Below, piece after piece: positions 4,849 through 60,709 of a DNA stretch of 64,000 bases. Source of the DNA: Escherichia phage SelmaRatti. The position numbers and the translations under genes were made by a program. Within the stretch, counting starts at the first letter, position 1, and each line of letters opens with the position of its first letter. Below the pieces are notes generated by a model, which was not told the origin of the DNA, ran no database searches, and worked only from the letters and a program-made list of their open reading frames with translations. The stretch lies in the sequence record MZ501103; one strand, given 5' to 3'.

Positions 4849-5739
4849 TTATACCAAATCTTTAAGCGATTCAGCAACTAAAATTTCAATACGTTTTGCT
4901 AACATATCAATCTCTTCTTTATTTAAGTCACCAGGGTCTTTACCTTCAGGCAGAAGAAAGTTAGCAATTACAGGTGTTAAACGCGTTTTTGTACGAATTA
5001 GCTTGGCCAATGCTTGTGCAGCTTTAGTACCAGAAGCATCATTATCTAGTAAGATAACAACAACTTTAACACCAGCAATAATATACGGACTGAACTTATC
5101 TGCAATGTTATCCGAAGTAAACTGATGTGTACCAAAGCAGCAAGAAGCATAGTCTATACCATTATCCTCTAGGTTCAGCATATCAAAGATACCTTCAACT
5201 AAAATAAGAACTGGAGTATTATATCGTACAGGAAAAATTGGCGGTGAAACTTGTTTTGGTTTTACTAAGTATTTAGGAGGGGCAGAACTGTTTATAGAAC
5301 GACCCAAAAATAGGATATTGCGTCCAACAGCATCTGTGATTGGGAATACAATTCTGCCTTCCCAGTTCTCTTGATGTTGGAAAGCAAAATACTTCTTCAA
5401 GGTCTTAGAACTGATACCTCGGAAATCACCTTCAAAAAGAAAGGCAGATTCTGGGATTGCAAGATTCGTAGATCCATTTCTAATCTCTGAAATCTTTTTA
5501 CGTACCTGCGATAGTCTTGGAGACTGTCGGTACTGAGTCTCATTAAAATAATGGTAAATGCTCGGTATACCTTTACCGAAGCCACAACTCAAGCAGTGCA
5601 TGACCCCTGACTCGGGGTCAATACGTAGACTTGGGTGTTTATCGTCATGATCTGGATTGAGGCAGCATATAAGAATATCCCCGCCTGTATCCTTATACTC
5701 AATTCCTTTTAGATCAAGTAACTCTGTTATTCTACTCAT
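4849..5739 (-). CDS. DNA primase (DnaG-like, zinc-binding + TOPRIM)
   Basis: CLNPDHDDKHPSLRIDPESGVMHCLSCGFGKG zinc motif; TOPRIM-like LVEGIFDMLNLED and VILLDNDASG. Confidence 0.8.
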   Translation of the reverse strand: MSRITELLDLKGIEYKDTGGDILICCLNPDHDDKHPSLRIDPESGVMHCLSCGFGKGIPSIYHYFNETQYRQSPRLSQVRKKISEIRNGSTNLAIPESAFLFEGDFRGISSKTLKKYFAFQHQENWEGRIVFPITDAVGRNILFLGRSINSSAPPKYLVKPKQVSPPIFPVRYNTPVLILVEGIFDMLNLEDNGIDYASCCFGTHQFTSDNIADKFSPYIIAGVKVVVILLDNDASGTKAAQALAKLIRTKTRLTPVIANFLLPEGKDPGDLNKEEIDMLAKRIEILVAESLKDLV

Positions 5740-7259
5740 ATATCACTGGCCTGTTCACCTGTTGAATTTTCAGCTTTGTCTTTCTTAGCACGTTTAGGTT
5801 GAGCCGACTTATCCTTCTCAATAGGGATAACGAACTCAGCTTCCATTTGAGATATATCTTCCATTGCTAGGTTGGTAGTGTTATCCATCCGCAAGGTTTC
5901 CCAGTTCATTTTAGGCATAAACTTCACGCTATCAGAAGAACGAGTCTTAACGAAGTCAAACATAATAGCACCTTGACCATTATCAGCTTTTGCAGCATTA
6001 AGATTAGCAGCCATGTCTGCGGAATCAAGAATCCCCTTTGACATACGTGTTCTACCGTCTTGATCGATCTGGTAAGGAGCTACACCAGCCACGTTATGTT
6101 TCTGGCAAATAGATTTGAAAGACGAGCTAACAACCATCTGTTCTTTCCAGTCATACATATCAATGGTTTTAGAATCTGGAAGTCGGGTTTGGTTAATATA
6201 GTCCAGTAAAGCTACTGTAACTTTATCCCCATATCTAGCAACTAATTTATTTAATTCTACGTCAACTGTTGTAATAGACAGCTCAGGATCATAAACAATA
6301 ATCATAGGAGTATGTAGCTCATACCCTTCTATTAGCTTACTTTCCATATCGTAGAAATCACTCATCTTAGCCATTGTGTACTGTTTAACGAAGTTATCGA
6401 AAAGCTCTTCACCACCGTTAAACATCCTGGCTCTAGTTCTGGCTAATCTCAACAGAGCTGCACCTTCTAGAGTATTATTACGCATTGCTAGTGCTGATAC
6501 ACCAGCTAACATGGCTAGATTACGTCTAAATACTTCATGTTCTTTCATCTCAATTGAGAAGTATGGAGCAATATCTCCATTCAAATATTGCTGAACCTGT
6601 ATGTTTGAACAGATAATGGATTTACCGGTACCACGCCAACCACCAAGCAGTAACGTTTCTGTGCGAGCTAAACCAATTTGAGCGTCGAACTCATTACAAA
6701 TACCAAGAGCGATTAAGTTCAGTTTGGTATCTTCTTCTCTCTGGAAAATACGCATGTTATCTGCGTTGAATACTTTTCCAGTATTCGTTACTTTCTCTTC
6801 TAATTTTAAGTGAAGGGAGGCAACTCGGTTAAGAATTTCTCCCTGATCCAGCATTGTTAAATCTTGAAGCACGTCTGTTTCTAGAAGCTTCAGGAATAAA
6901 TCCTGTGTATACTCGGCTTCTAGGACTTCAAGTGCCTGTTCCATGCTAACTTCTGGAATTTGAGTGTTAGCTAAGACGACTAGAGCTTGAGAAAGGCGGG
7001 CGTTCCTATTAGCCTCAAGCATCAGTGCGTCAATGGACGGCATTGTGTTATATTTTTTATAATAATTCTGGACGGCTTGGTAAATTGAGGAGAAAGCGTC
7101 ATTAAAATGATCTTTATGCAGTTTTGAGAATGTTTCCAATGCTATTTGCTTCTGTTCGGAAGCTAGAAGCATCTTCAACACTACAGCTTGCACGTTAAAC
7201 AAGGTCATTCTCCTTTGCACGCTTTCGTGCCTTCTAAATGCAAAAAGGGGAAGGAGCAT
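5736..7259 (-). CDS. replicative helicase (DnaB-like)
   Basis: Walker A GGWRGTGKS; length 507 aa; adjacent to primase; C-terminal tail ...NSTGEQASDI. Confidence 0.8.
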   Translation of the reverse strand: MLLPLFAFRRHESVQRRMTLFNVQAVVLKMLLASEQKQIALETFSKLHKDHFNDAFSSIYQAVQNYYKKYNTMPSIDALMLEANRNARLSQALVVLANTQIPEVSMEQALEVLEAEYTQDLFLKLLETDVLQDLTMLDQGEILNRVASLHLKLEEKVTNTGKVFNADNMRIFQREEDTKLNLIALGICNEFDAQIGLARTETLLLGGWRGTGKSIICSNIQVQQYLNGDIAPYFSIEMKEHEVFRRNLAMLAGVSALAMRNNTLEGAALLRLARTRARMFNGGEELFDNFVKQYTMAKMSDFYDMESKLIEGYELHTPMIIVYDPELSITTVDVELNKLVARYGDKVTVALLDYINQTRLPDSKTIDMYDWKEQMVVSSSFKSICQKHNVAGVAPYQIDQDGRTRMSKGILDSADMAANLNAAKADNGQGAIMFDFVKTRSSDSVKFMPKMNWETLRMDNTTNLAMEDISQMEAEFVIPIEKDKSAQPKRAKKDKAENSTGEQASDI

Positions 7260-7290
7260 AGCCCCCTCCCCTTAGGTTTAATTTACCAGA

Positions 7291-8058
7291 TTATTCAGCA
7301 GCCGCAGCTTTTGCATCCAGTTTAGCACGCTTAGCGGCACCATCATAGTCCTTAGCAACCAGACCACGACGAGACAGCATAGATTTAACACCGCGCTCAG
7401 ACTTACCAGTTTTCTCAGCGATCTCAGCAACAGTCATGTTAACCAGATCCAGACCTTCTAACAGATCTTCACGAGTTTTAGCACTTGAAGTTTCCTGTAC
7501 CGGCATAGCAGCGATACGACCTTCACGAAGCAAGCTCAGAGCTTTACCACGGATCTGCTTGATATTACGACCGAAGTGAGCAGCGATAGCTTCAATAGTA
7601 GCACCAGCAACAACCTGATTAACAAAATCAGTTTCTTCATCCGGAGTGAAGGAACGAACTGCAGCAGCTTTTTCGGTTGGCTTAACAGAAGCGGTCATTT
7701 CCAGACTCAGGATCTTACCCTGTACCTGCTTAGCACCGAACTGACCACCAGCTACAGCAGCAGCGATTTCAGCATAGGTATACTGACCATCATGAGCGTT
7801 CAGGAAATCAACCAGTTCAGCTTCCTGCTCAGGAGTCCACGGGGATTTCTGTACTTCGTTAGCTTTCTGTACTTCGAAACCTTCTTTACGCAGCTTAGAG
7901 CCAACAGAGCGAGCGGTAACGTCTTTGCCAGTTTCAGTAGCCAGTTCAGCAGCGATAGCGGCTACTTGTTCTTGAGAGATTACAGAAACACCCAGAGCAG
8001 TGGCTTTTGCTTTCAGAGACTCGGTTACACCTTCTACGTTCCAGTTCAGTTTAGACAT
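7291..8058 (-). CDS. putative abundant DNA-binding protein (D5-like), internal repeats
   Basis: Ala/Lys-rich with repeated helix-like segments, GC-rich codon choice unlike neighbours; function inferred only. Confidence 0.4.
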   Translation of the reverse strand: MSKLNWNVEGVTESLKAKATALGVSVISQEQVAAIAAELATETGKDVTARSVGSKLRKEGFEVQKANEVQKSPWTPEQEAELVDFLNAHDGQYTYAEIAAAVAGGQFGAKQVQGKILSLEMTASVKPTEKAAAVRSFTPDEETDFVNQVVAGATIEAIAAHFGRNIKQIRGKALSLLREGRIAAMPVQETSSAKTREDLLEGLDLVNMTVAEIAEKTGKSERGVKSMLSRRGLVAKDYDGAAKRAKLDAKAAAAE

Positions 8059-8833
8059 TATTATTTTTCTCCAATAGTTCTTTAATCGACAGGATTTCTA
8101 TCCCATTCGTTTCGGCTTTCTTATAAGATGAGGAAGAACGCTTAGATTCATCCTCACAGATTAGGTATTTAACGTCTTTGGTAACTGATTTTTTAACAGT
8201 ATACCCTAGACTTTCTAAATAGTTTGTTGCATCCGTTCTATTTGCAAAATCTTGCAAAGATCCGGTAATACATACCGCGATTCCATTTGGCTGGGCAACT
8301 AATTCATCTGTAGTGATAATATTAGCTTTAGTGCCCTTAATACCAGTTGAAAATTTCCACGGTAGTTCAATAACATCCTTGCCTTGTGGGGAATTTAGCC
8401 AGGCTCTATAGTTTTCTCCAGCCTTGCCGTCAGCCTTCACATCGTGGAAGCTAGTGCAATTTTGGGATAATTTCTTTGCTGCAACCTCTCCAATTAGAGG
8501 GATTCCTAAAGAACCGAGAACTGAACCAAAGTCAATGTCTCCGCGAACTTTAGTATTTAATTCGCTAATTAACTTAGCGGCAACCTTGCTACCCACGGCT
8601 CTAACCAAATCTTCTTCGGTTAGGTAAAATAGTTCTGAAATCTTCGTCAGCTCCAGCTTCTCAATAGTTTTTGGGCCAAAGCCCTTTAACTTCATTTTTG
8701 AACAGAAGTTCTCAATTAACTTACTTGATTGCGCTGGACAGTTGGACTTATTCCGACAGAATAATTGTCCGTTGACAAGATCTAGCTTAGAACCACAAGA
8801 GGGACATTGTGTTGGAATTTCGATTTTCATCAA
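8051..8833 (-). CDS. NAD-dependent DNA ligase, C-terminal portion (Zn finger-HhH-BRCT; subunit B)
   Basis: CPSCGSKL...CRNKSNCPAQ zinc finger, HhH GFGPKTIEKL, BRCT-like C-terminus. Confidence 0.8.
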   Translation of the reverse strand: MMKIEIPTQCPSCGSKLDLVNGQLFCRNKSNCPAQSSKLIENFCSKMKLKGFGPKTIEKLELTKISELFYLTEEDLVRAVGSKVAAKLISELNTKVRGDIDFGSVLGSLGIPLIGEVAAKKLSQNCTSFHDVKADGKAGENYRAWLNSPQGKDVIELPWKFSTGIKGTKANIITTDELVAQPNGIAVCITGSLQDFANRTDATNYLESLGYTVKKSVTKDVKYLICEDESKRSSSSYKKAETNGIEILSIKELLEKNNNV

Positions 8834-8860
8834 ATTTCTTCCTTATCAATTTATATAAAT

Positions 8861-8889
8861 ATTATAGCAAGTATTTAAGCATTTAGCAA
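8861..8889 (-). promoter_or_regulatory. sigma70-type early promoter for ligase subunit B operon
   Basis: rc reads TTGCTA-17-TATAAT then ataaattga box. Confidence 0.55.
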
Positions 8890-9032
8890 CTACAATTTTA
8901 ACTAACTTTGCTTACCCTCGCCATAACTTTCTATCCCTCAACTGAATGATAATAGTATATACCTAAGCGGCGAAAATGTCAATAACCACTTTATAATTCC
9001 GATATGGTAGATGGGTAGCAAAGGGTTATGTA

Positions 9033-10004
9033 TTAATCGTATACTCGCTCTACTATACACGGGATTACACCACCAGCACGAATCACTCGAATTTGGCAAC
9101 CGATCTCTAGATCAAGAGAGTTAATATAATCAACGTTATTAAGAGTCGCTTTAACAATTGTAGCATCATCAATAATTACCGGTTCGAAATAACCAACTGG
9201 AGTTACTTTACCAGAAGCCCCTACCTGCCATTCAACTTTAGTAAGAGTTGTAATCTCGCCTTCTTCATCCTCTTTAATAGCGAATGCTCCGCGAGGGAAT
9301 TTATTAGTCCAGCCTTCTCGGAAGAATTTGTTGTTGTCATTAATACGAACAACTTTACCATCTGTCGGAATCCATTTAAAGAAGGAACGCACATTAACAA
9401 CTGTTAAGAAGTTCTCATTCTCTAGCCAAAGCATATCTTTTAAATACGTTTCTGTAATACCTACAGATTCAGCAGAACACTGGATACCATATGCAACGAA
9501 GATTAAACCACCTTCTCCGATACGTTGTACGAAATCATCACTATCTTTTAGGTTAATAGCACCAGAGGCAAAGTTACGTTTATTTTCTACTTCTTTTGTA
9601 ATTAGAACTTCACCAGTGATTTGAGTAGGTACTTTTTGGGAAATCTTTTTAGGGATGTTCAGCAATCTTACGTTGCTTGTGACATCATTCCCTAGAATAC
9701 CATTACCACGAGTTAGTGCTTGAACAAATTCGCCATTAATATATAACAAAGAAATCGCACAACCATCTAACTTATCAGTTTCTACCTGACCTAATGGGTT
9801 AAACGGAGGTTTATCCCCACGATTATAATAAACTTTCTGTAAAGAATACATACGATACAGATGTGGGATATCACCCTTAGGCCCGATCTCTTCTTCTAAC
9901 GGGAATCTTTTAATAAGACGATCATATTCTTCGTCAGAGATTAAAGACATTCCCTGGTAATACGCTTCTTGACAACGTTTAATAAAGTCTTTTATATTAG
10001 TCAT
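9033..10004 (-). CDS. NAD-dependent DNA ligase, N-terminal adenylation/OB portion (subunit A)
   Basis: Adenylation motif TDKLDGCAISL (KxDG) and LigA-like flanking sequence; separate ORF from the C-terminal part. Confidence 0.8.
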   Translation of the reverse strand: MTNIKDFIKRCQEAYYQGMSLISDEEYDRLIKRFPLEEEIGPKGDIPHLYRMYSLQKVYYNRGDKPPFNPLGQVETDKLDGCAISLLYINGEFVQALTRGNGILGNDVTSNVRLLNIPKKISQKVPTQITGEVLITKEVENKRNFASGAINLKDSDDFVQRIGEGGLIFVAYGIQCSAESVGITETYLKDMLWLENENFLTVVNVRSFFKWIPTDGKVVRINDNNKFFREGWTNKFPRGAFAIKEDEEGEITTLTKVEWQVGASGKVTPVGYFEPVIIDDATIVKATLNNVDYINSLDLEIGCQIRVIRAGGVIPCIVERVYD

Positions 10005-10277
10005 TTATTCTGCCTCATAGTACGTGGGTTGTCTAGTGGATCCGTGCCATGTAAAATTTTTGCAGAGATGCAAATACGTGGTTTTTACTAGCCTACCTGA
10101 CAATGGAGAGTATATTTCAGCTATTAATACTTCTTTTTCGTAATGAAGTGAAATCAGCTTATACCCACTTCTAGTTTTAGTATACTTTTCTCCATTAATC
10201 TTCTCCTCCCACATAAGTATAAGAGGCTGTCCGATATATGGGAAAGGTTTAAGTGTACTTATATTTATCTTTTTCAC
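10005..10277 (-). CDS. hypothetical protein (90 aa)
   Basis: ORF abutting ligase subunit A start; own upstream promoter. Confidence 0.4.
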   Translation of the reverse strand: MKKINISTLKPFPYIGQPLILMWEEKINGEKYTKTRSGYKLISLHYEKEVLIAEIYSPLSGRLVKTTYLHLCKNFTWHGSTRQPTYYEAE

Positions 10278-10307
10278 TTTGCAACCCTCTCATTAATTTA
10301 TATAAAT

Positions 10308-10336
10308 ATTATATAACAAAACTGAGTTGAAAGCAA
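10308..10336 (-). promoter_or_regulatory. sigma70-type early promoter
   Basis: rc reads TTGCTT-17-TATAAT then ataaattaatgag. Confidence 0.55.
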
Positions 10337-10342
10337 ATACAT

Positions 10343-10654
10343 TTATTCTTTTTCCGCCAGGCGTTTAGCTTCTTTTTCTACTTCTAATAAAACCTCACTA
10401 TTAGATAATATTTTAGTAAATGCCTTAAATAAATGAGATGTTGTTTCTAGAGTGTATGGCATACTGAATCCACTTTTTGTTGGAAACCATTCACCTTCTA
10501 TATCTTGGAGCCAGTACCTAATTCCTAAGTATAGATTCCCCCTAAACTCAGATACAGTTAGCCTAACCTGTTGGCCATCTTCTCTCTCCCAGATAACTAT
10601 GGACTGATCATCTACATGTCCAACATAATCCTGATTTACATTATCTCCTGACAT
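10343..10654 (-). CDS. hypothetical protein (103 aa)
   Basis: ORF in operon context. Confidence 0.4.
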   Translation of the reverse strand: MSGDNVNQDYVGHVDDQSIVIWEREDGQQVRLTVSEFRGNLYLGIRYWLQDIEGEWFPTKSGFSMPYTLETTSHLFKAFTKILSNSEVLLEVEKEAKRLAEKE

Positions 10655-11301
10655 TTTATTGCTCCCTGACTTAGGAGATATTCCTCTGCCTCCTCTGGTT
10701 GAATACTGAAAAACTCAGTAGAACCGTCAAATATTGACTCTGTAAATATCTGCATACTAGAAAAGAATTGATGGGCTTTATTTTCTAGGGTATATGCAGA
10801 GCCTTCATAAGAGTATACCCCATGTATACTCAGATCCACCAAATTAGAATCTTTTTTGATCTCTTGAAGTCTTCTATCTGGGTTTTTAGATGTTCCTATT
10901 TTTGTTCCTAGCTGCGGGCTATAAAATAGATACAAATAGCTTGTAGCCGCACAGATAGGGCAAGATCTTCTAGCATTTTTAATCTTATCCACGCTGCTAG
11001 CCCATCTATGCCCTTCTACACACTCGAACTCTGCTTGACTACGGGAATTAATATAGGGAGATACAAGTTTTATACCCCTACTAGCTAGCTGTTGGTTTAT
11101 TTGCTCTACAGTAAGCTTAGCTTTATTACTACAATGTGGGCAACCACTACCCTTTCTTATATTATTTAGGTAAGCTTTCCATTGGTGGCCATTTAAGCAT
11201 TTAAACATGGCTGGTGTTCTTATGTTAACCCATTCACTTACTATACTAAAGCCTCGTGACTCTAACTCTTTATTTATTTGTTTTGCTGTTAACTTTTTCA
11301 C
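10636..11301 (-). CDS. zinc-ribbon repeat + T5orf172/GIY-YIG-like domain protein (homing-endonuclease-like)
   Basis: Two repeats C..GH.W...CP.C (FKCLNGHQW...CPHC; FECVEGHRW...CPIC) and C-terminal YLYLFYSPQLGTKIGTSKNPDRRL. Confidence 0.6.
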   Translation of the reverse strand: MKKLTAKQINKELESRGFSIVSEWVNIRTPAMFKCLNGHQWKAYLNNIRKGSGCPHCSNKAKLTVEQINQQLASRGIKLVSPYINSRSQAEFECVEGHRWASSVDKIKNARRSCPICAATSYLYLFYSPQLGTKIGTSKNPDRRLQEIKKDSNLVDLSIHGVYSYEGSAYTLENKAHQFFSSMQIFTESIFDGSTEFFSIQPEEAEEYLLSQGAIKCQEIM

Positions 11302-11348
11302 TATACTTTATATACAACAAAGGAGAGCCGAAGCTCTCCTTTTCTTTA

Positions 11349-11639
11349 TTATTTTTTACCTACTGGCGTAGCTCTATCAAGTTCACTAGACAATGAAGTG
11401 ATACGTTTTACCTTATTTACCGGGATGAATCGGAAGCTATCATTAGTACGGCTAAATACTAGAATCTCGTCGTCTTTTGGTTGGCGAATACGCTCCTGGG
11501 CGAATCGTTTACTGAGATACTTATCAGAAAAGTCCATAGTACCTTGAAGATACGTAGTACCTTTTTGACGTAATTTCTCATAATGAAGGTAGAACTCGTT
11601 ATGAGCTTCACATGCGGAGATGATTTCTTGTTTATTCAT
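11349..11639 (-). CDS. hypothetical protein (96 aa)
   Basis: ORF, operon context. Confidence 0.4.
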   Translation of the reverse strand: MNKQEIISACEAHNEFYLHYEKLRQKGTTYLQGTMDFSDKYLSKRFAQERIRQPKDDEILVFSRTNDSFRFIPVNKVKRITSLSSELDRATPVGKK

Positions 11640-11654
11640 GCAAAAATCCCCTTA

Positions 11655-12065
11655 TTACTTAGTGATAGCTCGGATTGCTTCTGCCAGATGAGCAGCCGCT
11701 TTACCAGTCAGTTTGTCGATAATTGCATCATCCAGAAAATCTGGTGCTAGGCCAGCATCAGAGAATGCTGAACGAAGATCGGCATGAGCTTGGGCTTTAG
11801 AAGTGCGAGAACCACCAGAAGCTTTTTCTCCAGTAGATGCGCTAGATTTAGAAGCAGAGCCAGCAGCTTTCTTGATGTACAAACCTGCTTTAGTCAGCTT
11901 CATACGAAAACCGTTCGGAGTTACACCATTTTCCTGGGCAATTTCGCTAACAATTTCCATGCTAACACCCGGACGTTCATCCTCTGGGAATTGCTCCATA
12001 CGAGCAACGTATTCGGAAGACATTTTTTCGAACAGTTCATCAGTCCACTGAGTTGGAGTAGTCAT
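11655..12065 (-). CDS. hypothetical protein (136 aa)
   Basis: ORF, Ser/Ala-rich linker; upstream promoter. Confidence 0.45.
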   Translation of the reverse strand: MTTPTQWTDELFEKMSSEYVARMEQFPEDERPGVSMEIVSEIAQENGVTPNGFRMKLTKAGLYIKKAAGSASKSSASTGEKASGGSRTSKAQAHADLRSAFSDAGLAPDFLDDAIIDKLTGKAAAHLAEAIRAITK

Positions 12066-12122
12066 ATTTTATATTTCCTTAATTAAGAATTAAACAGAAT
12101 AGTTCTTTCAAACTATGAGAAT

Positions 12123-12151
12123 ATTATATCAAGAATTATAGGATTAAGCAA
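12123..12151 (-). promoter_or_regulatory. sigma70-type early promoter
   Basis: rc reads TTGCTT-17-TATAAT. Confidence 0.55.
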
Positions 12152-12171
12152 CTGAAATTTTTCGGTAATTG

Positions 12172-12426
12172 CTACACATCTAGTTCAACAATCTCCCAAT
12201 CGTCGGCCAGAGCCTCGTCTAGGGTAAGGTTTACTTGACGGATAAGTGGGGATTCCATACCGTTCTCCCACACATGTTCAGTCACTGTACCCTGCTCTAC
12301 GTTAAATTCTAAAACCACTGTAAAGTGTTTATTATTTTCCCAGCTATCCCGCTGGAGATATTTTACATCCCCATCTTTCAGTAAATCTGTTAGCTTACTC
12401 ACGGCGTTTTCCTTTTTCTTTATCAA
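12172..12426 (-). CDS. hypothetical protein (84 aa)
   Basis: ORF, overlaps upstream gene stop. Confidence 0.4.
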   Translation of the reverse strand: MIKKKENAVSKLTDLLKDGDVKYLQRDSWENNKHFTVVLEFNVEQGTVTEHVWENGMESPLIRQVNLTLDEALADDWEIVELDV

Positions 12427-13099
12427 GTTTCAGGGCAGCCTTGACAGCTTCGTTAATCAACGTAATAATTTCTTCACGAGTCCATTTATATCCTAGAGAT
12501 TTTACGTCAACCCCTAGCTTTTCCAGATGTTTAACAGAGGCCAACTCGTAATTCATATAGTGGACGTTCTGTTGTTTGCCTTCCGATAGAAGCCATACAC
12601 GGTAACAACCAACAGGATTATCCATTGCTTTTTTGATTTCACCGATACACTGGTATCCAGGAACCCAAACAAGCTCACCAACTGCAAATTCTTCTGCTAC
12701 AGCATCATCAGGAATAATTGGAGGATTCAATGGATCTACAATATCGTTCAAACGAAGTAGAGCACCGTATCGTTCCAGAACAGATTTAACCATTGCTACA
12801 GAGCGATAATTACGATCGGCAATTTCTTCGAAAGAATCACCAGATAAATACTGCTCAATAACGTTAGCTAACTCGATGCCTTCAATGAGTGTGCCACGTT
12901 TCTTTTTCTTCATTTCGGCAACTTGAATCTGGCGATCTTGCCACTCCTCAATCATCCTTTCCATAGTTGGATTGGACGATACGCCGAGCATTTCACATGC
13001 TGCTTTCTTAGTACCACCGTTCTCCAGATGCTCTATAACCTTTTTAAAGACTTCATCTGGGATTTCATGGATATGTTTCTTTCTACGAGAACCAGCCAT
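12395..13099 (-). CDS. putative HTH DNA-binding protein (234 aa)
   Basis: N-terminal KKAACEMLGVSSNPTMERMI helix-turn-helix-like segment. Confidence 0.45.
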   Translation of the reverse strand: MAGSRRKKHIHEIPDEVFKKVIEHLENGGTKKAACEMLGVSSNPTMERMIEEWQDRQIQVAEMKKKKRGTLIEGIELANVIEQYLSGDSFEEIADRNYRSVAMVKSVLERYGALLRLNDIVDPLNPPIIPDDAVAEEFAVGELVWVPGYQCIGEIKKAMDNPVGCYRVWLLSEGKQQNVHYMNYELASVKHLEKLGVDVKSLGYKWTREEIITLINEAVKAALKLDKEKGKRRE

Positions 13100-17625: not shown

Positions 17626-18075
17626 TTACACCTTAAATTGTTGTAAGGATTTACACATTTCAATATCTGGGCTAAATTCTAGCATATAGCTAACAGCTTT
17701 TAAATCTTGAAGATTTATCCCAGTCCTACCGTTGACTATAACCGTTGGATACTGATACATCATAGCACCAGCACGCTCAATAAGGTCATCAACGTTAGTA
17801 GTCAAATTTACTACTTGACCAGGATATTTCTTATACCATTCCCCAATACGCAAGTGTGCAAGGTTAGGTTCAACAGTTTCTAGCTCTTCACGTCGCTTGT
17901 TGTAAAACATATGGGTTTTATGATAAAAGTTACCACGAAAGGCATGAATATTACATACCTCTTCTAAGTCATAATCATCCCACAATGCTTTACCACTAGC
18001 AGTATCAGTACGGAAGGCTCGTACACCACTTTCAACACTCAAACCTACACCACTGATAATAATTAATCTACGCAT
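17626..18075 (-). CDS. Sir2-like NAD-binding N-terminal domain protein (truncated, 149 aa)
   Basis: ISGVGLSVESGVRAFR...NVDDLIERAG resembles CobB/Sir2 GAGIS.ESGI..FR...QNID.LHERAG; no zinc ribbon, no catalytic His. Confidence 0.5.
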   Translation of the reverse strand: MRRLIIISGVGLSVESGVRAFRTDTASGKALWDDYDLEEVCNIHAFRGNFYHKTHMFYNKRREELETVEPNLAHLRIGEWYKKYPGQVVNLTTNVDDLIERAGAMMYQYPTVIVNGRTGINLQDLKAVSYMLEFSPDIEMCKSLQQFKV

Positions 18076-52494: not shown

Positions 52495-52527
52495 ATATAC
52501 ATAAATTAGTTAAGAGAGGTATATATT

Positions 52528-52956
52528 ATGTCTGATCGTTTCTACACTCAAATGGCTGAACATTTTCGTATACCACATTACGAGCTAAACATTGCACTCC
52601 GTGATCATGACTCTCCTGAGTACAAAAAGCTCGAAAAGAAAGCGGAAAAATCTATTGATACAAAGGTAGGTGCATCTATGTCTAAGGGCAAAAAGTTAAC
52701 TCGTCTTGATCTTAATAAAATTTTAACTGAACTTTTGGGTACTGATATTGAAGGTGCTAAATTACCGCTTCTTGTACTAGAGACTATGATTAAAAAGGTC
52801 AAAAATAAAGAGTATAAAAAGGTAGAAGTCCCAGAAGGAAGATTGAAGGCTCCTTATCAGGAAGCATTAACCGAGTGTTTGGGTGTAAATCTTGATCTGA
52901 GCACCGCAACCGTAAAAACTATGAAAAACTTCTTAGAGGCCATTAATAAATTGTGA
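52528..52956 (+). CDS. hypothetical protein (142 aa)
   Basis: Promoter 52466-52494, RBS agagagg. Confidence 0.45.
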   Translation: MSDRFYTQMAEHFRIPHYELNIALRDHDSPEYKKLEKKAEKSIDTKVGASMSKGKKLTRLDLNKILTELLGTDIEGAKLPLLVLETMIKKVKNKEYKKVEVPEGRLKAPYQEALTECLGVNLDLSTATVKTMKNFLEAINKL

Positions 52957-53459: not shown

Positions 53460-53742
53460 ATTAGTCTATCTATTAAAAGGTTCCACTTGTAACCCATGTA
53501 AACTTTTCGAACCAGTATTTGATAAAGTAGTCAGCGACTATAATTTGGAAATCCATAAAGAGACTGATAATACAGAATTAATGCAGAAATTTGGTGTGCG
53601 CCAAGTTCCTGTAGTAGTTCTGGCAGATCGCTTACCTAATGGTCGAGTAGAAGCTAACCATATTTTGATTGGACGTCAGCTTCGTAAAGAAACTATGCAC
53701 GAAGCTATTAAAAATTTCCTGGATGATAACCCAGAGGATTAA
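53452..53742 (+). CDS. thioredoxin/glutaredoxin-like protein
   Basis: CNPC redox motif near N-terminus; ATG 53452 with RBS aaggaaa. Confidence 0.5.
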   Translation: MSKLVYLLKGSTCNPCKLFEPVFDKVVSDYNLEIHKETDNTELMQKFGVRQVPVVVLADRLPNGRVEANHILIGRQLRKETMHEAIKNFLDDNPED

Positions 53743-53747
53743 TAAAC

Positions 53748-53780
53748 AAAGCCTGATCAGCTAAGATCAGGCTTTTATTT
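53748..53780 (+). terminator. rho-independent terminator
   Basis: agcctgatc...gatcaggct then tttatttt. Confidence 0.6.
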
Positions 53781-53783
53781 TAC

Positions 53784-53812
53784 TTGCTTTTTACTAAAAA
53801 TTTTGGTATAAT
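53784..53812 (+). promoter_or_regulatory. sigma70-type early promoter
   Basis: TTGCTT-17-TATAAT. Confidence 0.55.
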
Positions 53813-53839
53813 ACTTATATAAATTGATAGGAGGATTAA

Positions 53840-54085
53840 ATGTTAGCAGAGCAAGCAAAACGTTTAGCTAGGATAAATAGAGTTGCACTCTTTAAGAGCC
53901 GAAAGAAAACGTATAGATGGGTTGAGCGGAGGATAGTATCTTCTGTAGAGGCTGGGGGTTCTTTTATACAATTTAATCGTGATGAAATTAGTTATGAAGC
54001 TATAAAAGCCCTCTATAAAGATGGTTATACTCTCCAATTATCTAATGAGTATGGCACAACTATTTTAACTGTTATTTGGGAATAA
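53840..54085 (+). CDS. hypothetical protein (81 aa)
   Basis: Promoter 53784-53812, RBS taggagg. Confidence 0.4.
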   Translation: MLAEQAKRLARINRVALFKSRKKTYRWVERRIVSSVEAGGSFIQFNRDEISYEAIKALYKDGYTLQLSNEYGTTILTVIWE

Positions 54086-54951
54086 TTATGAAAAAAGAAT
54101 TTAATGTGCATAAAACACTAGTAGTACCTGATGATGTTAATTTATTCTTTGTTGGTGATATTCATGGATGCAACGATTTACTAGAAGATGCACTACAATT
54201 AGCTGGCTATAACGGCAAGAAAGACTGCGTTGTATGCGTGGGGGATTTAATTGATCGAGGCACGCAGAACCTACAAGTTTTAGCCAAATTCCTGTATAAT
54301 CCACGCTTTATCAGTGTCCGTGGAAACCACGACCAGTTTATGATTGTGGGAGATTGGGCTAACTGGATGTATAATGGTGGTATGTGGGCTATGAATGAAC
54401 TAGATGCAGATACCATTAAAAATATTGCCGAAGATATGGCTGAAAAACTTCCAGTATTTCTGACTGTGCTGCATCGTGGCAAGAAATTTGGTGTTGTTCA
54501 TGGTGGTGTACCTTTTACATACAAAGAATGTGGTAACGAAGTAGAAACCCAAGTATGGGATAATCTTATTGCGCAAGTAGAAGCAGCTAAGGAAGACCCA
54601 CATGACCATCCGGGATACCATGTTGAACCATATTTATGGGATCGAGATGTAATCCAAGAAATAGGCTTCTACTTGTCCAAAAATGGTGAGGAACACCCAT
54701 ATTTCCAGCGTTATGCAGGATTTAAAGAAAAATACATGGTAGAAGTGCCAGAAGTTAAGGGGGTAGATTTTGTGTTCCACGGACACACTGGGGTTCCTTA
54801 CCCACTTCTTTATAAAAACCGTGTTTATCTTGATACTGGCGGTGTTTTCAACGGGCAGTTGACGGTTGCGCAAGTTAATGATGAAACTGGCAAAATCACA
54901 ACATTTACCACGCTTCGCGAAGATAGCTGTGGCATACAGAGGATTCTTTAA
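54076..54951 (+). CDS. Ser/Thr protein phosphatase (calcineurin-like metallophosphoesterase)
   Basis: GDIHG, GDLIDRG, GNHD motifs. Confidence 0.75.
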   Translation: MGIIMKKEFNVHKTLVVPDDVNLFFVGDIHGCNDLLEDALQLAGYNGKKDCVVCVGDLIDRGTQNLQVLAKFLYNPRFISVRGNHDQFMIVGDWANWMYNGGMWAMNELDADTIKNIAEDMAEKLPVFLTVLHRGKKFGVVHGGVPFTYKECGNEVETQVWDNLIAQVEAAKEDPHDHPGYHVEPYLWDRDVIQEIGFYLSKNGEEHPYFQRYAGFKEKYMVEVPEVKGVDFVFHGHTGVPYPLLYKNRVYLDTGGVFNGQLTVAQVNDETGKITTFTTLREDSCGIQRIL

Positions 54952-55472
54952 TGAAAGTCTGCTTTTGGAGCGATCTACACTTAGGACATGAAAATATTAC
55001 TAAATTCAGACCAATCTTCTCTACTATGGAAGAGCATGATGAATTTATTATGGATACTATTACATCCATGAAAGATAAGCGTACAGTATTTTATATTTTA
55101 GGGGATGCATTTGTATCTAGAAATGGTTTGGAGAAATTCGAAAAACTCTTTAGTAATGTTAGAACTACATTAGTTTTGGGGAACCACGACTTAGAACGAG
55201 AAGGGTTATCTTTCAAAGACTTAGTGGGAGTTGTAGATAACGTACAATCCCTAGTTAAGTATAAAAACTTTTGGCTTTCCCATGCTCCAGTACATCCAGA
55301 AGAGTTAAGGGGCAAGAAGAACTTACATGGGCATACTCACTTTGAGTTAATGGGGGACCACCGTTATATTAACGTTTGTGTAGAGTATGCAAAATCACCA
55401 GTACGCCTGGAAGACATCATGAATGGTAAGTACACTTCTCATGATAAAACTAGCTGGATGTTAAATGTCTAA
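54951..55472 (+). CDS. metallophosphoesterase family protein
   Basis: SDLHLGH...GDAFVSRNG...GNHD...GHTH motifs. Confidence 0.6.
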   Translation: MKVCFWSDLHLGHENITKFRPIFSTMEEHDEFIMDTITSMKDKRTVFYILGDAFVSRNGLEKFEKLFSNVRTTLVLGNHDLEREGLSFKDLVGVVDNVQSLVKYKNFWLSHAPVHPEELRGKKNLHGHTHFELMGDHRYINVCVEYAKSPVRLEDIMNGKYTSHDKTSWMLNV

Positions 55473-55580
55473 GTATATAGCTGAGGTTATTATTAAACGA
55501 ATTATACAGGCGATAGCAATACTTATAATCATTTGTATTGCTATTGGCACAGGATTAGGCATTTTAATTGAAAGTTTTAT

Positions 55581-55609
55581 TTGCTAAAATGCCTAAGTTT
55601 CTGTATAAT
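55581..55609 (+). promoter_or_regulatory. sigma70-type early promoter
   Basis: TTGCTA-17-TATAAT. Confidence 0.55.
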
Positions 55610-55639
55610 TACTTTATAAATTGATGAGAAGGAATCAAA

Positions 55640-56071
55640 ATGAACAAAGTTGATAAAGCTCTAGTTTTCGCAGCAGCAGATAAGTTTGAACAAGTTAAGG
55701 CAACTTTCCGAACCTTGTTCCAGTCTTACGTTCAGGATAAGTCTAATCCTATCTCTGAACGTTTGATGGTCTGGGAATGTCATGCATGCAATGCCTTATT
55801 AATTGCTGATTATCGTAGCGATATAGATAAAGATCTGTGCGAAATTCTTATCGCTGAGGAGGCAGAACGTTATCAGTTAATCTCTTTCCAAGATTTGGCA
55901 GAGCATATCATTCCCGATGATCTTTGGGATAAATACTATGGTGATCCTGAAGATGAAGGAATGACTCCAGAAGCATGCATTGAGCTGATCTGCAAAGATC
56001 ATCCTGAAATTGCAGAGAAATTTGAAAAAGTTTTTGCTTCTGAGTTCTCCGGCGTTGTTAACGATTGGTAA
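55640..56071 (+). CDS. hypothetical acidic protein (143 aa)
   Basis: Promoter 55581-55609. Confidence 0.45.
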   Translation: MNKVDKALVFAAADKFEQVKATFRTLFQSYVQDKSNPISERLMVWECHACNALLIADYRSDIDKDLCEILIAEEAERYQLISFQDLAEHIIPDDLWDKYYGDPEDEGMTPEACIELICKDHPEIAEKFEKVFASEFSGVVNDW

Positions 56072-56089
56072 GTAATTAAAAAATTCAGT

Positions 56090-56118
56090 TGCTTTAAGCC
56101 TTAAAATTCTGTATAATA
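56090..56118 (+). promoter_or_regulatory. sigma70-type early promoter
   Basis: TTGCTT-17-TATAAT. Confidence 0.55.
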
Positions 56119-56131
56119 AGTTCATAAATTA

Positions 56132-56425
56132 ATGAGAGAGGAAATTCTAATGGAAAACATGACTAAAGACTTCGACGCCTCTAACCTTACCAAGACTGAA
56201 ATGGCCAATGTATTAGCAATTCTTCTCGACATGCAAGGATTTGAGGGGCAACTGATGAAAATGTCCATCCCAGCAATGAAAAAGATGTATGATTCTCTTA
56301 ATAAGAACGCTATGGCCTTTAACTTAGCGAAACAAGAGGCACGATTTGCTAAAGAGCATCAAGCAGTGGCAGAACGCCGAGCAGCTAGCTTTGAGCGTGA
56401 AGTCAAGCAATTAAAGAAAAAATGA
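56132..56425 (+). CDS. hypothetical protein (97 aa)
   Basis: Promoter 56090-56118. Confidence 0.45.
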   Translation: MREEILMENMTKDFDASNLTKTEMANVLAILLDMQGFEGQLMKMSIPAMKKMYDSLNKNAMAFNLAKQEARFAKEHQAVAERRAASFEREVKQLKKK

Positions 56426-56958
56426 TAACACAAGAAAGATTAAAAGAGCTATTTGAATACCGCCAGGAAACGGGCGAGTTTATAAGGAAAGTCAGTAGAG
56501 GGCGAGGTAAAGCAGGTAGTATTGCTGGTAGTCCTGATAAGGATGGTTATATATTTATTGGAATAAATAGAAAAAGATATGCAGCCCATAGATTAGCCTT
56601 TTTGTATATGGAGGGGTATATTCCAAATCTAGTACACCACTTAAATAATATAAGAAAAGATAATAGATGGTGTAATTTAAAAGATTGTACGTCCCAAGAG
56701 AATAATCGTAGCAAAATCGCTCAATCTAATTCGGGGTACTTAGGAATTACTTGGAAAAAAGATAGACAACAATGGAGAGTCCAGGTCAGAAGCGCCGAAA
56801 GTATTACAGTACACGGAGGCTACTTTAGGTATCTAGATTTAGAGTTGGCAGTTCAAAGAGCTAATGAACTACGTTTAGAACTACATGGGGCTAACGCTGT
56901 TATAGAAACTTTTGATCATACAAAACCCTTACCTACTTTAGAGGAATTAAATAAATGA
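56422..56958 (+). CDS. HNH homing endonuclease (AP2/HNH_3-like), paralog of 50226-50762
   Basis: GYIFIGI...HRLAFLYMEGYIPNLVHHLNNIRKDNRWCNL; both ends align with the 50226 product. Confidence 0.7.
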   Translation: MITQERLKELFEYRQETGEFIRKVSRGRGKAGSIAGSPDKDGYIFIGINRKRYAAHRLAFLYMEGYIPNLVHHLNNIRKDNRWCNLKDCTSQENNRSKIAQSNSGYLGITWKKDRQQWRVQVRSAESITVHGGYFRYLDLELAVQRANELRLELHGANAVIETFDHTKPLPTLEELNK

Positions 56959-57236
56959 TTACAGAAATTTTAATTGGGTTACTAATTCTTACTACGCTAG
57001 TAGCGATTGGTGGAGTTATTGGGGTTGTAAACGCACGAAAAAACATGGAAAGTATGCTCATTACTAATGATGGATTACACCACCGTTTGCTAGAGCAAGA
57101 GCAAGATATTGAATTAGCACAAAGACGCTCAGATATTCTTAAAGAAAAATTAAATAATATAGAAGCAATAATTGGGAATAATAAATTACCCGCTAAAGTA
57201 ATGCGTACACAGATAATCACGGAGATTAAAAAATGA
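56955..57236 (+). CDS. small membrane protein
   Basis: N-terminal hydrophobic helix. Confidence 0.4.
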   Translation: MITEILIGLLILTTLVAIGGVIGVVNARKNMESMLITNDGLHHRLLEQEQDIELAQRRSDILKEKLNNIEAIIGNNKLPAKVMRTQIITEIKK

Positions 57237-57475
57237 TGTTTATTCTAGCATTTTATATAATCGTGGTAGGGGTTCTAGTTACTAAGTACCATACATGGGC
57301 ACCAAAGAATGTAGCTAAGGTAGCATTATTTGTTATTCCAGTTCCCCTTGTTATATTTTCTATGCTACTAGTGATGTTAATCGGTAAAGTGACGAAGACC
57401 GATGTTAAGCGCATTGCTGACGAATTGCAACAGTCCTGTGATATGATTGAGGATATTATTAAAGATGAAACTTAA
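57233..57475 (+). CDS. small membrane protein
   Basis: Two hydrophobic helices. Confidence 0.4.
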   Translation: MMFILAFYIIVVGVLVTKYHTWAPKNVAKVALFVIPVPLVIFSMLLVMLIGKVTKTDVKRIADELQQSCDMIEDIIKDET

Positions 57476-57791
57476 TTTCAATGAGTTAAATACTTTGCAT
57501 GAGCTGTTACAGTTTGTAAATAATAATATTAGTATTCCAGATGATACACTAGAAGTTCTCATGTTAATAGAGAAAAAGGTAGGGGTTGAAATTGAGGATT
57601 CTTGGAAACCACTTTCTACATTAACACCTCTCAAAATGAAGGTGGTTGTTAAAAATATTGAAACTGGAGAAGAACGTGAGATGGTTCGTACAGAACTAGC
57701 GAATAGTTACTCTCCAACGTCTGTAGTGATGCAACATGATGGTGTTTCCGAAGTTCTACAGACAGCTAATTACGTATGGCGTCTCCCATGA
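57465..57791 (+). CDS. hypothetical protein
   Basis: ATG 57465 overlaps previous stop. Confidence 0.4.
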   Translation: MKLNFNELNTLHELLQFVNNNISIPDDTLEVLMLIEKKVGVEIEDSWKPLSTLTPLKMKVVVKNIETGEEREMVRTELANSYSPTSVVMQHDGVSEVLQTANYVWRLP

Positions 57792-57890
57792 TTGATTTAG
57801 TACCAATTACTGCTGGGCTAATAGCATTATTAGTGCTAGCAGTTTTCATTATTGTGGAGCAGGCCAAAGTAATAAGGAGACTTAAAAACA

Positions 57891-58091
57891 ATGATAAAAC
57901 GTATTGTTTATCAGACACCAAAGATTGTAACTGAGTATTTTGTATTACTGCCTCAGATTGTATTTCTAACAGCATTATTTAATATACTTTTTCGACATCT
58001 AGGAATAACGGAAAATATATTCTATACTTCTGGGTTACTTCCTTTTATGTACGAAGGCATCATTATGGCAATTAACGGGGTTCGTAAATGA
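57891..58091 (+). CDS. small membrane protein
   Basis: ORF with hydrophobic core. Confidence 0.35.
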   Translation: MIKRIVYQTPKIVTEYFVLLPQIVFLTALFNILFRHLGITENIFYTSGLLPFMYEGIIMAINGVRK

Positions 58092-58549
58092 CAGCACTAC
58101 AACAACTACAGAATTACTGGTTTGATAACCAATTTAACGATCTCTTCATCCAGTTGTTTGTCGAAACGAACGGACGCTTCAACTACCGATTCTTTAATAA
58201 GTTTCACGAAACAAAATTCTCACATACAGAAATTAATGCAGCAATCCAAGACCTAACTGGTTCTAAAGTAATTCAGTATCGTGAAGTAGACTTCACACCA
58301 GATTGTTTTGGGTTTGAATTGTTTAAGAAAGCGTATAAATTTGGTAAGTTTGAGGATGCTCGTCAATGGGTTCATGATTTCTGGTACAACACCGATATTG
58401 TCCCTAGTCGCGTGCTGATTCTTAACTGGATTGCTAAGCAACATCCACCTAAAACGCAATCATCCTTCTTACCGACTGACACAGGAAACCTCTACCATGA
58501 CAGAAAAGAAAAATCCATTATTGGAGCAGATGAAGGAGTGGGAGAGTAA
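58088..58549 (+). CDS. hypothetical protein (153 aa)
   Basis: ORF, overlapping start. Confidence 0.45.
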   Translation: MTALQQLQNYWFDNQFNDLFIQLFVETNGRFNYRFFNKFHETKFSHTEINAAIQDLTGSKVIQYREVDFTPDCFGFELFKKAYKFGKFEDARQWVHDFWYNTDIVPSRVLILNWIAKQHPPKTQSSFLPTDTGNLYHDRKEKSIIGADEGVGE

Positions 58550-58868
58550 TATTGAAACTGGTCTAATAGACGGTGAAGATATTGTCAACTCCATGCTAGA
58601 AGTAACAGTAGATAATATTAATCCTATTTTGGCTGGAGAAACCTCAGATCTTATAGGACTCTCTAGCACATTTGATTCTTTGGCTAAATTAGCTTTAGAC
58701 GATGAAGAGATAACTAAAGAAGATCTCGCTACAGCTATGAATATGGCTATTAATGCTTACATCGGTAAACGTACTGATGAACTTGGTAAACAGATCAATA
58801 AGCGTGATGCTACGCTAGGTCTTATGGAAACGGCCACTATGTTAAGAAGTGGTAAACAACTTCATTAA
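58497..58868 (+). CDS. hypothetical protein
   Basis: Internal ATG 58497 preferred over the longer overlapping start. Confidence 0.4.
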   Translation: MTEKKNPLLEQMKEWESNIETGLIDGEDIVNSMLEVTVDNINPILAGETSDLIGLSSTFDSLAKLALDDEEITKEDLATAMNMAINAYIGKRTDELGKQINKRDATLGLMETATMLRSGKQLH

Positions 58869-58924
58869 TTTTAGGAGGCCAGAACAACTAAGTCCTGGCC
58901 TTTTATGTTTTCAAGGAACTTCAA

Positions 58925-59128
58925 ATGCAAGTATATGTCCTTACTAGAGATATAAATGAGTATAATCAGGATGGTGAGTATTTTGTAAAAGTATTCGCTG
59001 AAAAGCCAAGTAAACAACAATTATTAGATGCGGGGGTACCCGAAGACCAGGCTAAGTGTATACTACAAGATAAAGAGTTTACCGGGGATGCTTACGAATG
59101 TTTCTACCTTAACTGTGAGACTATTTAA
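58925..59128 (+). CDS. hypothetical protein (67 aa)
   Basis: ORF after a hairpin. Confidence 0.4.
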   Translation: MQVYVLTRDINEYNQDGEYFVKVFAEKPSKQQLLDAGVPEDQAKCILQDKEFTGDAYECFYLNCETI

Positions 59129-59129
59129 T

Positions 59130-59570
59130 ATGAGAGAGAAAGTAAATGAATTATTAATCGAGGAAGCTAACAACTTTCCAATAAATAGATTCATTAAATC
59201 GGATGGATCTATTAATAGAACTAAGATTAAGCAGCTACATCCCGACTTTCAACAAGAAGCACTAAACCTTATATTTATCAAGAAAGCTGTTGCAGTTCAT
59301 GGAGCTTTCTTTGGGTATGAACGTGTAAATTATAAGACAATGCAACAGCAAGTCGAGATCTACTGCCCGGACCATGATGGTTATTACTGGCAAACTGCTA
59401 GATCTCATTTAGAAGGGCACGGTTGTCGACTGTGTGCACACAAGGTTGTGCAGCGTGTCACGGATTATGGAACTTATACCGTGCCATCATGTTACCATAA
59501 ATTTGTAATTGACGATAATCATATAGTTTGGTATAATAAGTTTTCAAAGTTAAGAATGGAGATAAAATAA
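59130..59570 (+). CDS. hypothetical protein with Cys/His cluster
   Basis: ATG directly after previous stop; CPDHDGYYWQ...GHGCRLCAHK. Confidence 0.4.
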   Translation: MREKVNELLIEEANNFPINRFIKSDGSINRTKIKQLHPDFQQEALNLIFIKKAVAVHGAFFGYERVNYKTMQQQVEIYCPDHDGYYWQTARSHLEGHGCRLCAHKVVQRVTDYGTYTVPSCYHKFVIDDNHIVWYNKFSKLRMEIK

Positions 59571-59586
59571 TGGAAACACTTTTTTA

Positions 59587-59751
59587 ATGCTCGTAGGTTC
59601 GTTAGTAGTTATATTAGCACTTCTACTAATCTGCAATATTCTTAATAATAAGAATTTAGAGTTAAAGTGTGAGAACCAAATCCTTAATCGTGAACTTACA
59701 CAATATAATGTAGCAGCTCGCAAGCTGTTAGACAAACTGGAGAATAAATAA
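59587..59751 (+). CDS. small membrane-anchored protein (54 aa)
   Basis: Below the ORF-track cutoff; TAATG overlaps at both ends. Confidence 0.3.
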   Translation: MLVGSLVVILALLLICNILNNKNLELKCENQILNRELTQYNVAARKLLDKLENK

Positions 59752-60362
59752 TGTTTACACAACAAACCATTAAAGTAGTAGCAGATCATGAACTCGACAC
59801 ATGGGATTACAGCTTTAAAGATCTGACTGCTACAGTACAGTTTAAATCTATGCAACTGTCGTTTTTGCACACTGATCTTCAAGGTTGTAAAGAGTTTCAG
59901 GCTAAGCTCATCGATGCTCGTAAGATTTTTGGTACGGCTCGCATCCCGGCTGATAACCTGATTAATGCACTAATCGATGCAGGGTACAAACTCGTGAAGA
60001 CCGAGGTGAACCGCCCTAGTACTCCAGTGACTATTAGAGATCCGTGGCAGTCAGGGACAATCTCAATGCTGAATAACTCCGATAAAAGATTAATGTCGGA
60101 TATGCACAATGTTCATTGTGGTGGTGTGGTAAGCAATACGCAATCATATAAGTTTGGTGAAGATTGCGGCCCTTCTGTACAGCTGCAACATACCCAAGAG
60201 GCTTTTGAATCTGATATGCGAAGCGTAGCACCTGAGGATGCTGGAGTTTCTAGGAGTTCTGTTTGTACTATTCATTTTAATAATCTTAGGCCTGGGAATA
60301 TAAATGATACTATCCTTGAAGCGTTGGGGGCTGCTCTTAATGAAGATAAGAGAGGTAGTTAA
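59751..60362 (+). CDS. hypothetical protein (203 aa)
   Basis: ORF, coupled start. Confidence 0.45.
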   Translation: MFTQQTIKVVADHELDTWDYSFKDLTATVQFKSMQLSFLHTDLQGCKEFQAKLIDARKIFGTARIPADNLINALIDAGYKLVKTEVNRPSTPVTIRDPWQSGTISMLNNSDKRLMSDMHNVHCGGVVSNTQSYKFGEDCGPSVQLQHTQEAFESDMRSVAPEDAGVSRSSVCTIHFNNLRPGNINDTILEALGAALNEDKRGS

Positions 60363-60709
60363 TGATATTTGGTAAAACAAAAATAACTTCTGCTGGTGAC
60401 GATTTAATTACTCTTAGTCTCTACTATAAAGATGAAAATGTAGAATTAGAAACATTAGAGTATATTCTAATAACTACTAATAAGCCAAAAATAGGAGAGT
60501 TATTTGATATAATATCTATAGTCTCTGCTAGGGAAGATATTCCAAGTATAACACCAAAGAATATAGCTCACTTAGCACAACAATTAGGAATCCTATGGTA
60601 TAAAGTAGATCTTCCAGCTAAAGAAAGAACCAAAGGAACCTTTGCAGAAGTTGCAAGAAAACCTAAGCCAGAAAAGAAAGAAACAGGGGAGCAAGCGTCT
60701 GATATATGA
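60362..60709 (+). CDS. hypothetical protein with C-terminal tail ...TGEQASDI
   Basis: Last 8 residues identical to the helicase (5736-7259) C-terminus, encoded with different codons. Confidence 0.45.
   Translation: MIFGKTKITSAGDDLITLSLYYKDENVELETLEYILITTNKPKIGELFDIISIVSAREDIPSITPKNIAHLAQQLGILWYKVDLPAKERTKGTFAEVARKPKPEKKETGEQASDI

Follow-up and report, generated by a model that had tools for sequence, protein, structure and literature searches.

The DNA analyzed here is a 64,000-nucleotide stretch of Escherichia phage SelmaRatti (sequence record MZ501103), to which we refer as the window. Its source is a T5-like phage (Demerecviridae, Tequintavirus/Epseptimavirus group). The window is reversed relative to the usual T5 map; it begins with the gene that follows DNA polymerase and stops at the terminal repeat's inner end. 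The portion between 40 and 64 kb matches the early region adjoining the left terminal repeat in phages such as HdH2, SP15, and vB_Sen_I1. Our subject is a pair of its genes, one for the replicative helicase D6 and the other for an early accessory protein of 115 amino acids (aa), which is the second-to-last gene in the leftward early operon adjoining the terminal repeat (Table 1). Both proteins terminate in the same eight residues, TGEQASDI, confirming the original prediction of an identical C-terminal tail on the helicase and the small protein. At 99% identity, the helicase gene has counterparts annotated as D6/DnaB helicases in many Salmonella and Escherichia T5-like phages, and its product matches Pfam DnaB_C (E = 7.4e-9, better than the curated cut-off) and PHROG 19, the DnaB-like replicative helicases (E = 1.5e-62). 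The Walker A motif GxxGxGKS is unchanged throughout the helicase alignment, which places the protein among the DnaB-like SF4 helicases.

The C-terminal end of D6 reads ...KAENSTGEQASDI and that of the 115-aa protein ...EKKETGEQASDI. Among 247 open reading frames (ORFs), chance alone would yield about 5e-6 pairs that agree in their last eight residues. Under a position-specific score derived from the helicase tails, 23.4 bits were obtained for each of the two ORFs and −0.6 for the next best in the window across six frames, and no third tail carrier was found among the window ORFs in all six frames. The two tails are encoded differently (ACA GGT GAA CAG GCC AGT GAT ATA TGA in the helicase gene, ACA GGG GAG CAA GCG TCT GAT ATA TGA in the small gene): 6 of 24 nucleotides and five of eight codons differ, every change is synonymous, and a single nucleotide change cannot convert one serine codon, AGT, into the other, TCT. 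Conservation therefore lies at the protein level, as had been proposed from the differing codons. Outside the tail, the sole local similarity that BLASTP detected between D6 and the small protein was a stretch of 28 residues (14/28 identical) comprising the lysine-rich linker plus the tail; because the similarity is confined to linker and tail, the folded parts of the two proteins are unrelated, again in line with the prediction. A partial, internal resemblance was seen in a 136-aa protein (PHROG 1725, DNA binding protein; window positions 11655–12065, minus strand), where ...SSASTGEKASGGS... agrees with the tail at 5 of 8 positions; it lies in a Ser/Ala/Gly-rich linker, not at the C-terminus, and is probably due to chance.

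From sequence comparison, the helicase tail is a conserved family motif across Demerecviridae, reaching a helicase only 27% identical to D6. In at least 30 helicase clusters with 47–78% identity, a variable basic linker leads without exception to a terminal [G]E-x-[AS]-x-D-[IL], in variants such as GEEAADI, GESSRDL, ESASDL, and GEGAADI, and the Asp next to the last residue is invariant in the alignment. The motif is also present at the loci of Klebsiella, Pectobacterium, and Providencia phages, and the 27%-identical helicase, which is metagenomic, terminates ...GEEAQDI, giving an identity range of 27–78% for homologs with a C-terminal GE-x-[AS]-x-D-[IL]. In these homologs a variable basic stretch separates the conserved AEFVIP block from the tail. 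We also scanned 2.9 million viral contigs for ORFs of ≥100 aa ending in GExAxDI-stop with an ATATGA junction, which returned only T5-type helicases, the small protein, and the one distant metagenomic helicase, and tblastn with the helicase tail peptide as query recovered helicases only. A gene for an HNH homing endonuclease lies between helicase and primase in about one quarter of the related genomes (L004–L035) and starts at the identical ATGA overlap with the helicase stop, so that the junction is preserved exactly. The helicase stop overlaps the next ATG whether the downstream gene is the primase or the inserted endonuclease.

A profile of the helicase tails run over the rest of the BF23 genome (locus L003) picked out a third protein, D11, which is encoded just beyond the window and ends ...GIDHEAASDLDD (EAASDLDD); the corresponding C-terminal peptides are KAENSTGEQASDI for D6 and PEKKETGEQASDI for the small protein. 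D11 falls in PHROG 1607 (single strand DNA binding protein) and is labeled a single-stranded DNA-binding protein (SSB) in several records. Its end, EA[AV][SN][DE]L[DE](D), is found in 37 protein clusters down to 47% identity, preceded by 20–30 hypervariable residues, with linker and tail both acidic. In D11 the stop codon is clear of the following gene, so an overlap cannot account for conservation of the motif in this protein. More distant relatives of D11 end GAGEAAADL (Providencia phage PR1) or EQEAMDELE. In metagenomic viral contigs L039/L040 a D11-like SSB (ORF ending at 17639) terminates ...EALDSDDIPFD, near the bacterial SSB tip DDDIPF, which suggests that this lineage uses a host-type SSB interaction code.

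AlphaFold2 predicted a confident beta-rich core for D11 (mean predicted local distance difference test score, pLDDT, of 80), with the tail disordered from residue 229. Pfam gp32 was matched by 2 of 23 D11 family members (best E = 5.9e-6), and hhalign paired D11 with the core of T4 gp32 over 144 columns at 28% identity, but with an E of 0.03 and a low probability; against the PDB, phmmer, profile searches, and Foldseek all gave no match. Kinship of D11 to T4 gp32 is suggestive only.

Across a whole T5-like genome, the motif is exclusive to these three proteins. A pattern whose core was taken from helicase tails, then extended to cover variants of the D11 type and as many as two further residues at the end, matched 3 of 637 ORFs (helicase, D11, and the small protein), compared with a mean of 0.12 matches for shuffled tails. 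Because D11 shaped the widened pattern, this proteome test is independent for the small protein only. In the small protein and D11 the segments carrying the tail are predicted to be disordered, with AlphaFold2 pLDDT <50 at residues 91–115 and 229–257, respectively, and a conserved island beside a fast-evolving linker is found in the helicase, in D11, and in three of the four small-protein alleles. Protein-level conservation of the tail thus extends over three families.

The small protein itself is an orphan. Its AlphaFold2 model (mean pLDDT 70) has a beta-beta-beta-alpha-alpha-beta core at residues 5–81, and structure and sequence searches found no fold or sequence relatives beyond its own family: there was no Pfam match and no PDB sequence match, and HMMER against 1.84 billion representatives returned only its own alleles plus repetitive, probably spurious matches. 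The possibility that it is the PC4-like SSB of T5 was considered and rejected, given its lack of Pfam or PDB similarity and the presence elsewhere in the window of a PC4-like gene, which is tail-less. The gene is translationally coupled to those for the 203-aa and 237-aa proteins on either side, and the arrangement with the 237-aa gene is the same in the relatives inspected.

The gene is accessory and polymorphic in T5-like phages. Behind the 203-aa gene, a single slot holds one of four divergent alleles, and every allele is coupled to a gene of about 240 aa. T5 itself has an unrelated 295-aa gene, T5.018, in that position; the polymorphic slot spans 59751–61419 in the window and was also seen at L046 (T5 10936–12510), L043, and L143. 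The 115-aa allele ends ...KKETGEQASDI, identical in the relatives examined except for SDV in BF23; the 113-aa allele ends ...VSD[TN]SQQA[SW]DI and the 116-aa allele ...VKKSTGDQAWDI (STGDQAWDI), and the motif is absent from the 102-aa allele, which ends ...KTKPDDYI. The 115- and 113-aa alleles together were found in 53 of ∼440 T5-like records, the 116-aa allele in ∼73, and the 102-aa allele in ∼49 (the latter two counted from identity bands). Overall identity of the 116-aa allele to the window protein is 34%, and 7/9 of its terminal positions match the helicase STGEQASDI. The consensus [ST]-[GS]-[EDQ]-Q-A-[SW]-D-I is thus kept in three of four alleles, whose linkers and folded domains have diverged. 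The helicase TGEQASDI is present both in DT57C, which has the 113-aa allele, and in Salmonella phage 1-19, which has the 102-aa allele. Conservation of the tail in orthologs, the check that accompanied the original prediction, was borne out by helicases down to 27% identity and by three of the four small-protein alleles.

Table 1. Coordinates of the tail carriers, their tails and linkers, and neighboring genes in the window.
Feature	Coordinates	Strand	Length	Remarks
D6, replicative DnaB-like (SF4) helicase	5736..7259	minus	507 aa	longest ORF; Pfam DnaB_C, PHROG 19
Helicase tail codons (TGEQASDI)	5739..5762	minus		stop codon at 5736-5738
Lysine-rich, poorly conserved linker preceding helicase tail (EKDKSAQPKRAKKDKAENS)	5763..5819	minus		from helicase homolog sequences
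Early accessory protein	60362..60709	plus	115 aa	PHROG 13456; BF23_00020 ortholog
Small-protein tail codons (TGEQASDI)	60683..60706	plus		stop codon at 60707-60709
Small-protein basic variable linker, residues 91-107 (KGTFAEVARKPKPEKKE)	60632..60682	plus		pLDDT <50; varies between alleles, tail constant
Upstream protein	59751..60362	plus	203 aa	PHROG 5271; T5.019 homolog by size and position; stop overlaps small-gene start
Downstream protein	60706..61419	plus	237 aa	PHROG 8993; ATGA overlap with small gene
DnaG-type primase	4849..5739	minus	296 aa	Pfam Zn_ribbon_DnaG, DNAG_N, Toprim; ATG overlaps helicase stop; candidate partner
Family A DNA polymerase, intein-interrupted	1142..4786	minus		Pfam DNA_pol_A; flanks 96-98% identical to BF23 polymerase; candidate partner by T7 analogy
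PC4-like single-stranded DNA-binding protein	10343..10654	minus		PDB 4BG7 homolog, E 3.6e-46 to 4bg7_A

A short conserved peptide that ends a disordered, fast-evolving linker on unrelated proteins of one system is characteristic of a C-terminal short linear motif. We consider it probable that TGEQASDI is such a motif, serving docking in the T5-family replication apparatus, and that the proteins carrying it share one partner; most likely the tail docks D6, D11, and the small protein onto a common putative partner. In the D6 hexamer the tail would sit at the tip of a flexible linker, D11 would present the related EAASDLD(D) at the end of an acidic linker, and the two tails would bind the same surface of one replisome component. 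By analogy with T7 the candidate partner is the DNA polymerase, with the primase, an unrecognized helicase loader, or the DNA-binding groove of D11 as alternatives. On the small protein the tail has the helicase form and follows a basic linker like that of D6, and the orphan domain of the small protein may be delivered to the docking site or may compete there with the helicase and the SSB. The original prediction had likened the tail to the acidic tails of the T7 replisome. Its proposal of a docking motif gains support from the conservation, the tail of the SSB-annotated D11, and the predicted disorder. The tail is only mildly acidic, ends in Ile or Leu rather than the Phe of the T7 tails, and is missing from one allele of the small protein. 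Docking onto a common putative partner is well motivated and partly supported, and we infer it from the sequences and the analogy.

Several observations weigh against docking. The tail has only two acidic residues and no terminal aromatic, unlike the tails of T7 and of E. coli SSB. The 102-aa allele ends KPDDYI, without the motif, though at least one phage that has it retains the helicase tail. Within the 115-aa allele the tail DNA is invariant, leaving no synonymous variation from which to gauge selection there. The helicase and D11 tails share a core, but they are not identical and show no strict residue-by-residue covariation between lineages. D11, moreover, is identified as an SSB mainly by annotation, together with the PHROG match and the weak links to gp32, and Foldseek matched it to none of the solved structures.

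The closest comparison is with phage T7, in which the C-terminal tails of the helicase-primase gp4 and the SSB gp2.5 dock on the same surfaces, basic patches of the gp5 polymerase/thioredoxin, and raise processivity (PMC8472574, PMC12339929); processivity drops threefold when the gp4 tail is lost (PMC8472574). As in T7, helicase and SSB of one phage carry similar tails at their extreme C-termini (D6 ...GEQASDI, D11 ...EAASDLDD), in the same layout of folded domain, flexible linker, and short conserved end. The tails differ in chemistry: those of T7 are strongly acidic with an essential terminal Phe (…DTDF), whereas the T5-family tail is mildly acidic, ends in Ile or Leu (or Asp in D11), and in the helicase follows a basic linker. 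Unlike in T7, helicase and primase are separate proteins in the T5-like phage, and D11 appears gp32-like rather than gp2.5-like, judging from weak sequence links. Also unlike T7, a third, non-replicative accessory protein carries the tail. To our knowledge, this protein has no counterpart in T7.

Phage T4 likewise has a helicase and an SSB with similar C-terminal ends, of the form LDxLxN[DE]L. The gp41 helicase ends ...QLDALANELKF and the gp32 SSB ...DLDDLLNDL (L064:1613-1762 and L060:2949-3098 cover gp41/gp32). The tail of gp32 recruits the polymerase, the gp59 loader, and other helicases, and the C-terminus of gp41 is needed for the action of gp59. The motif sequences of the two systems differ, however, no gp59 homolog was detected among the neighboring T5 proteins, and homology of D11 to gp32 is insecure (low hhalign probability, Foldseek negative). 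A third parallel is the bacterial SSB tip (…DDDIPF), also a conserved C-terminal peptide after a disordered linker and a hub for many genome-maintenance proteins; unlike it, the Tequintavirus motif (EAASDLDD / GEQASDI) has no Pro-Phe tip. The SSB tip is, as far as we know, not carried by bacterial DnaB. What is unusual in the T5-like phage is the accessory protein as a tail carrier, the proposed replisome organization being otherwise of a known kind.

The presence of the tail on a protein of this sort raises the question of whether it acts as a competitive mimic, with the accessory protein occupying the docking site of helicase and SSB. An accessory, polymorphic gene, an early takeover-type location, and a helicase-like basic linker together make a regulatory or mimic role plausible. 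Consistent with this, the 115- and 113-aa alleles are limited to 53 of ∼440 records, with ∼120 more for the two other alleles and a different gene in the T5 slot; the gene sits among small early genes by the terminal repeat, outside the replication module; its linker plus tail resembles that of the helicase and not that of D11; and no replication protein is related to its folded domain. On the other side, one allele is tail-less, and competition and recruitment cannot be separated at the sequence level. We regard competitive mimicry as possible and rather unlikely. The same tentative standing applies to a wider proposal, that the T5-like replisome may be organized by a family-specific C-terminal code, G-E-x-A-S-D-I/L, on helicase and SSB, which polymorphic accessory proteins would have adopted as mimics. 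Were this so, such proteins would plug into or block the hub, and could thereby slow or time replication, interfere with or exclude a related phage during co-infection, or decoy a tail-recognizing host factor or a tail-sensing host defense.

The remaining explanations are each less likely than docking. The tail might be a degradation or turnover tag, read by a phage ClpP-like protease or by host ClpXP/Lon, so that early proteins are cleared on schedule: the peptide is exposed and disordered, its C-terminal residue is hydrophobic, and a Clp protease subunit is annotated among the early genes of the region in relatives. Known C-terminal degrons (ssrA, ClpX C-motifs) are of the LAA-COOH or RRKKAI-COOH types, however, and tails ending SDI, WDI, or DLDD do not fit that consensus; tagging makes little sense for replication proteins that have to last throughout infection, and the nearest precedents for tails on a helicase plus an SSB are docking motifs, which makes a degron improbable. 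We give still less weight to the absence of any shared function, whereby a fragment of the helicase 3′ end was gained by recombination or the nucleotides are constrained by the ATGA junction or a ribosome-binding site. It is true that both stop codons overlap the following ATG (GAT ATA TGA), that xTA TGA is kept in all four small-gene alleles and in nearly all helicases examined, and that purine-rich GGTGAA / GGGGAG stretches lie upstream of the junctions. Yet the overlap dictates no more than the stop codon and the final base before it, so the rest of the tail is not fixed by it, and the purine-rich stretch, 14–15 nucleotides from the ATG, is too distant for a Shine-Dalgarno sequence. Codons ending in A serve many amino acids, yet only Ile, Leu, or Val is used at the terminal position; given this free choice, the terminal aliphatic residue is selected at the protein level. 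The six synonymous differences in 24 nucleotides likewise show selection on the peptide and not on the RNA, the tail persists at ∼34% overall identity between alleles, and D11 conserves the motif without any gene overlap. The synonymous differences and the D11 case largely refute this explanation. Finally, the tails may act within their own proteins, folding back as SSB tails do on the DNA-binding groove, with no common partner. The acidic tails of T7 gp2.5 compete with single-stranded DNA for their own groove (PMC12339929), and the D11 linker and tail are acidic; against this, the same peptide would have to find a pocket in each of three unrelated folded domains, and the linkers of the helicase and the small protein are basic, not acidic. 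We judge fold-back improbable, at about the level of the degron.

Docking of the kind proposed would bear on a replisome that is far less understood than those of T7 and T4, above all on how a separate helicase and primase, a very processive polymerase, and an SSB are held together. A short peptide common to helicase and SSB points to a specific contact that lends itself to testing. The accessory protein, whose tail duplicates that of the helicase exactly, would serve as a natural probe of this putative contact and might even regulate or inhibit it. Together with the ends of T4 gp41 and gp32, the shared peptide raises the possibility that matching helicase and SSB tails are a general design of phage replisomes. 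No description of the T5 tail motif was found in the literature searched, and an earlier mention in two T5 papers of 2013 is possible.

Among the neighboring replication genes are two of the candidate partners, the primase and the polymerase. Domain matches to the primase stop by residue 272, and no further domain was detected in it. The polymerase ORF encodes 1214 aa compared with 855 aa in BF23/T5, with an in-frame insertion of 359 aa at 2771–3847 on the minus strand that begins CLTHDS..., ends ...VVHN followed by Cys, and contains a LAGLIDADG_2 domain; from these sequence features we identify the insertion as an intein carrying a homing endonuclease. The extein junction reads MWPYA|intein|CKDTDAT, corresponding to MWPYAAKDTDAT in BF23. 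The PC4-like protein served as a negative control for the tail motif, which it lacks, ending ...EKEAKRLAEKE. Neighbors of 109, 165, and 94 aa in the replication module gave no informative family match and no sign of a gp59-like loader. D5, which adjoins the helicase (window 7291–8058, minus strand), has repeated helix-turn-helix or sigma-70 region 4-like segments (Pfam Sigma70_r4_2, with weaker helix-turn-helix matches), which fit its annotation as a D5-like transcriptional regulator.

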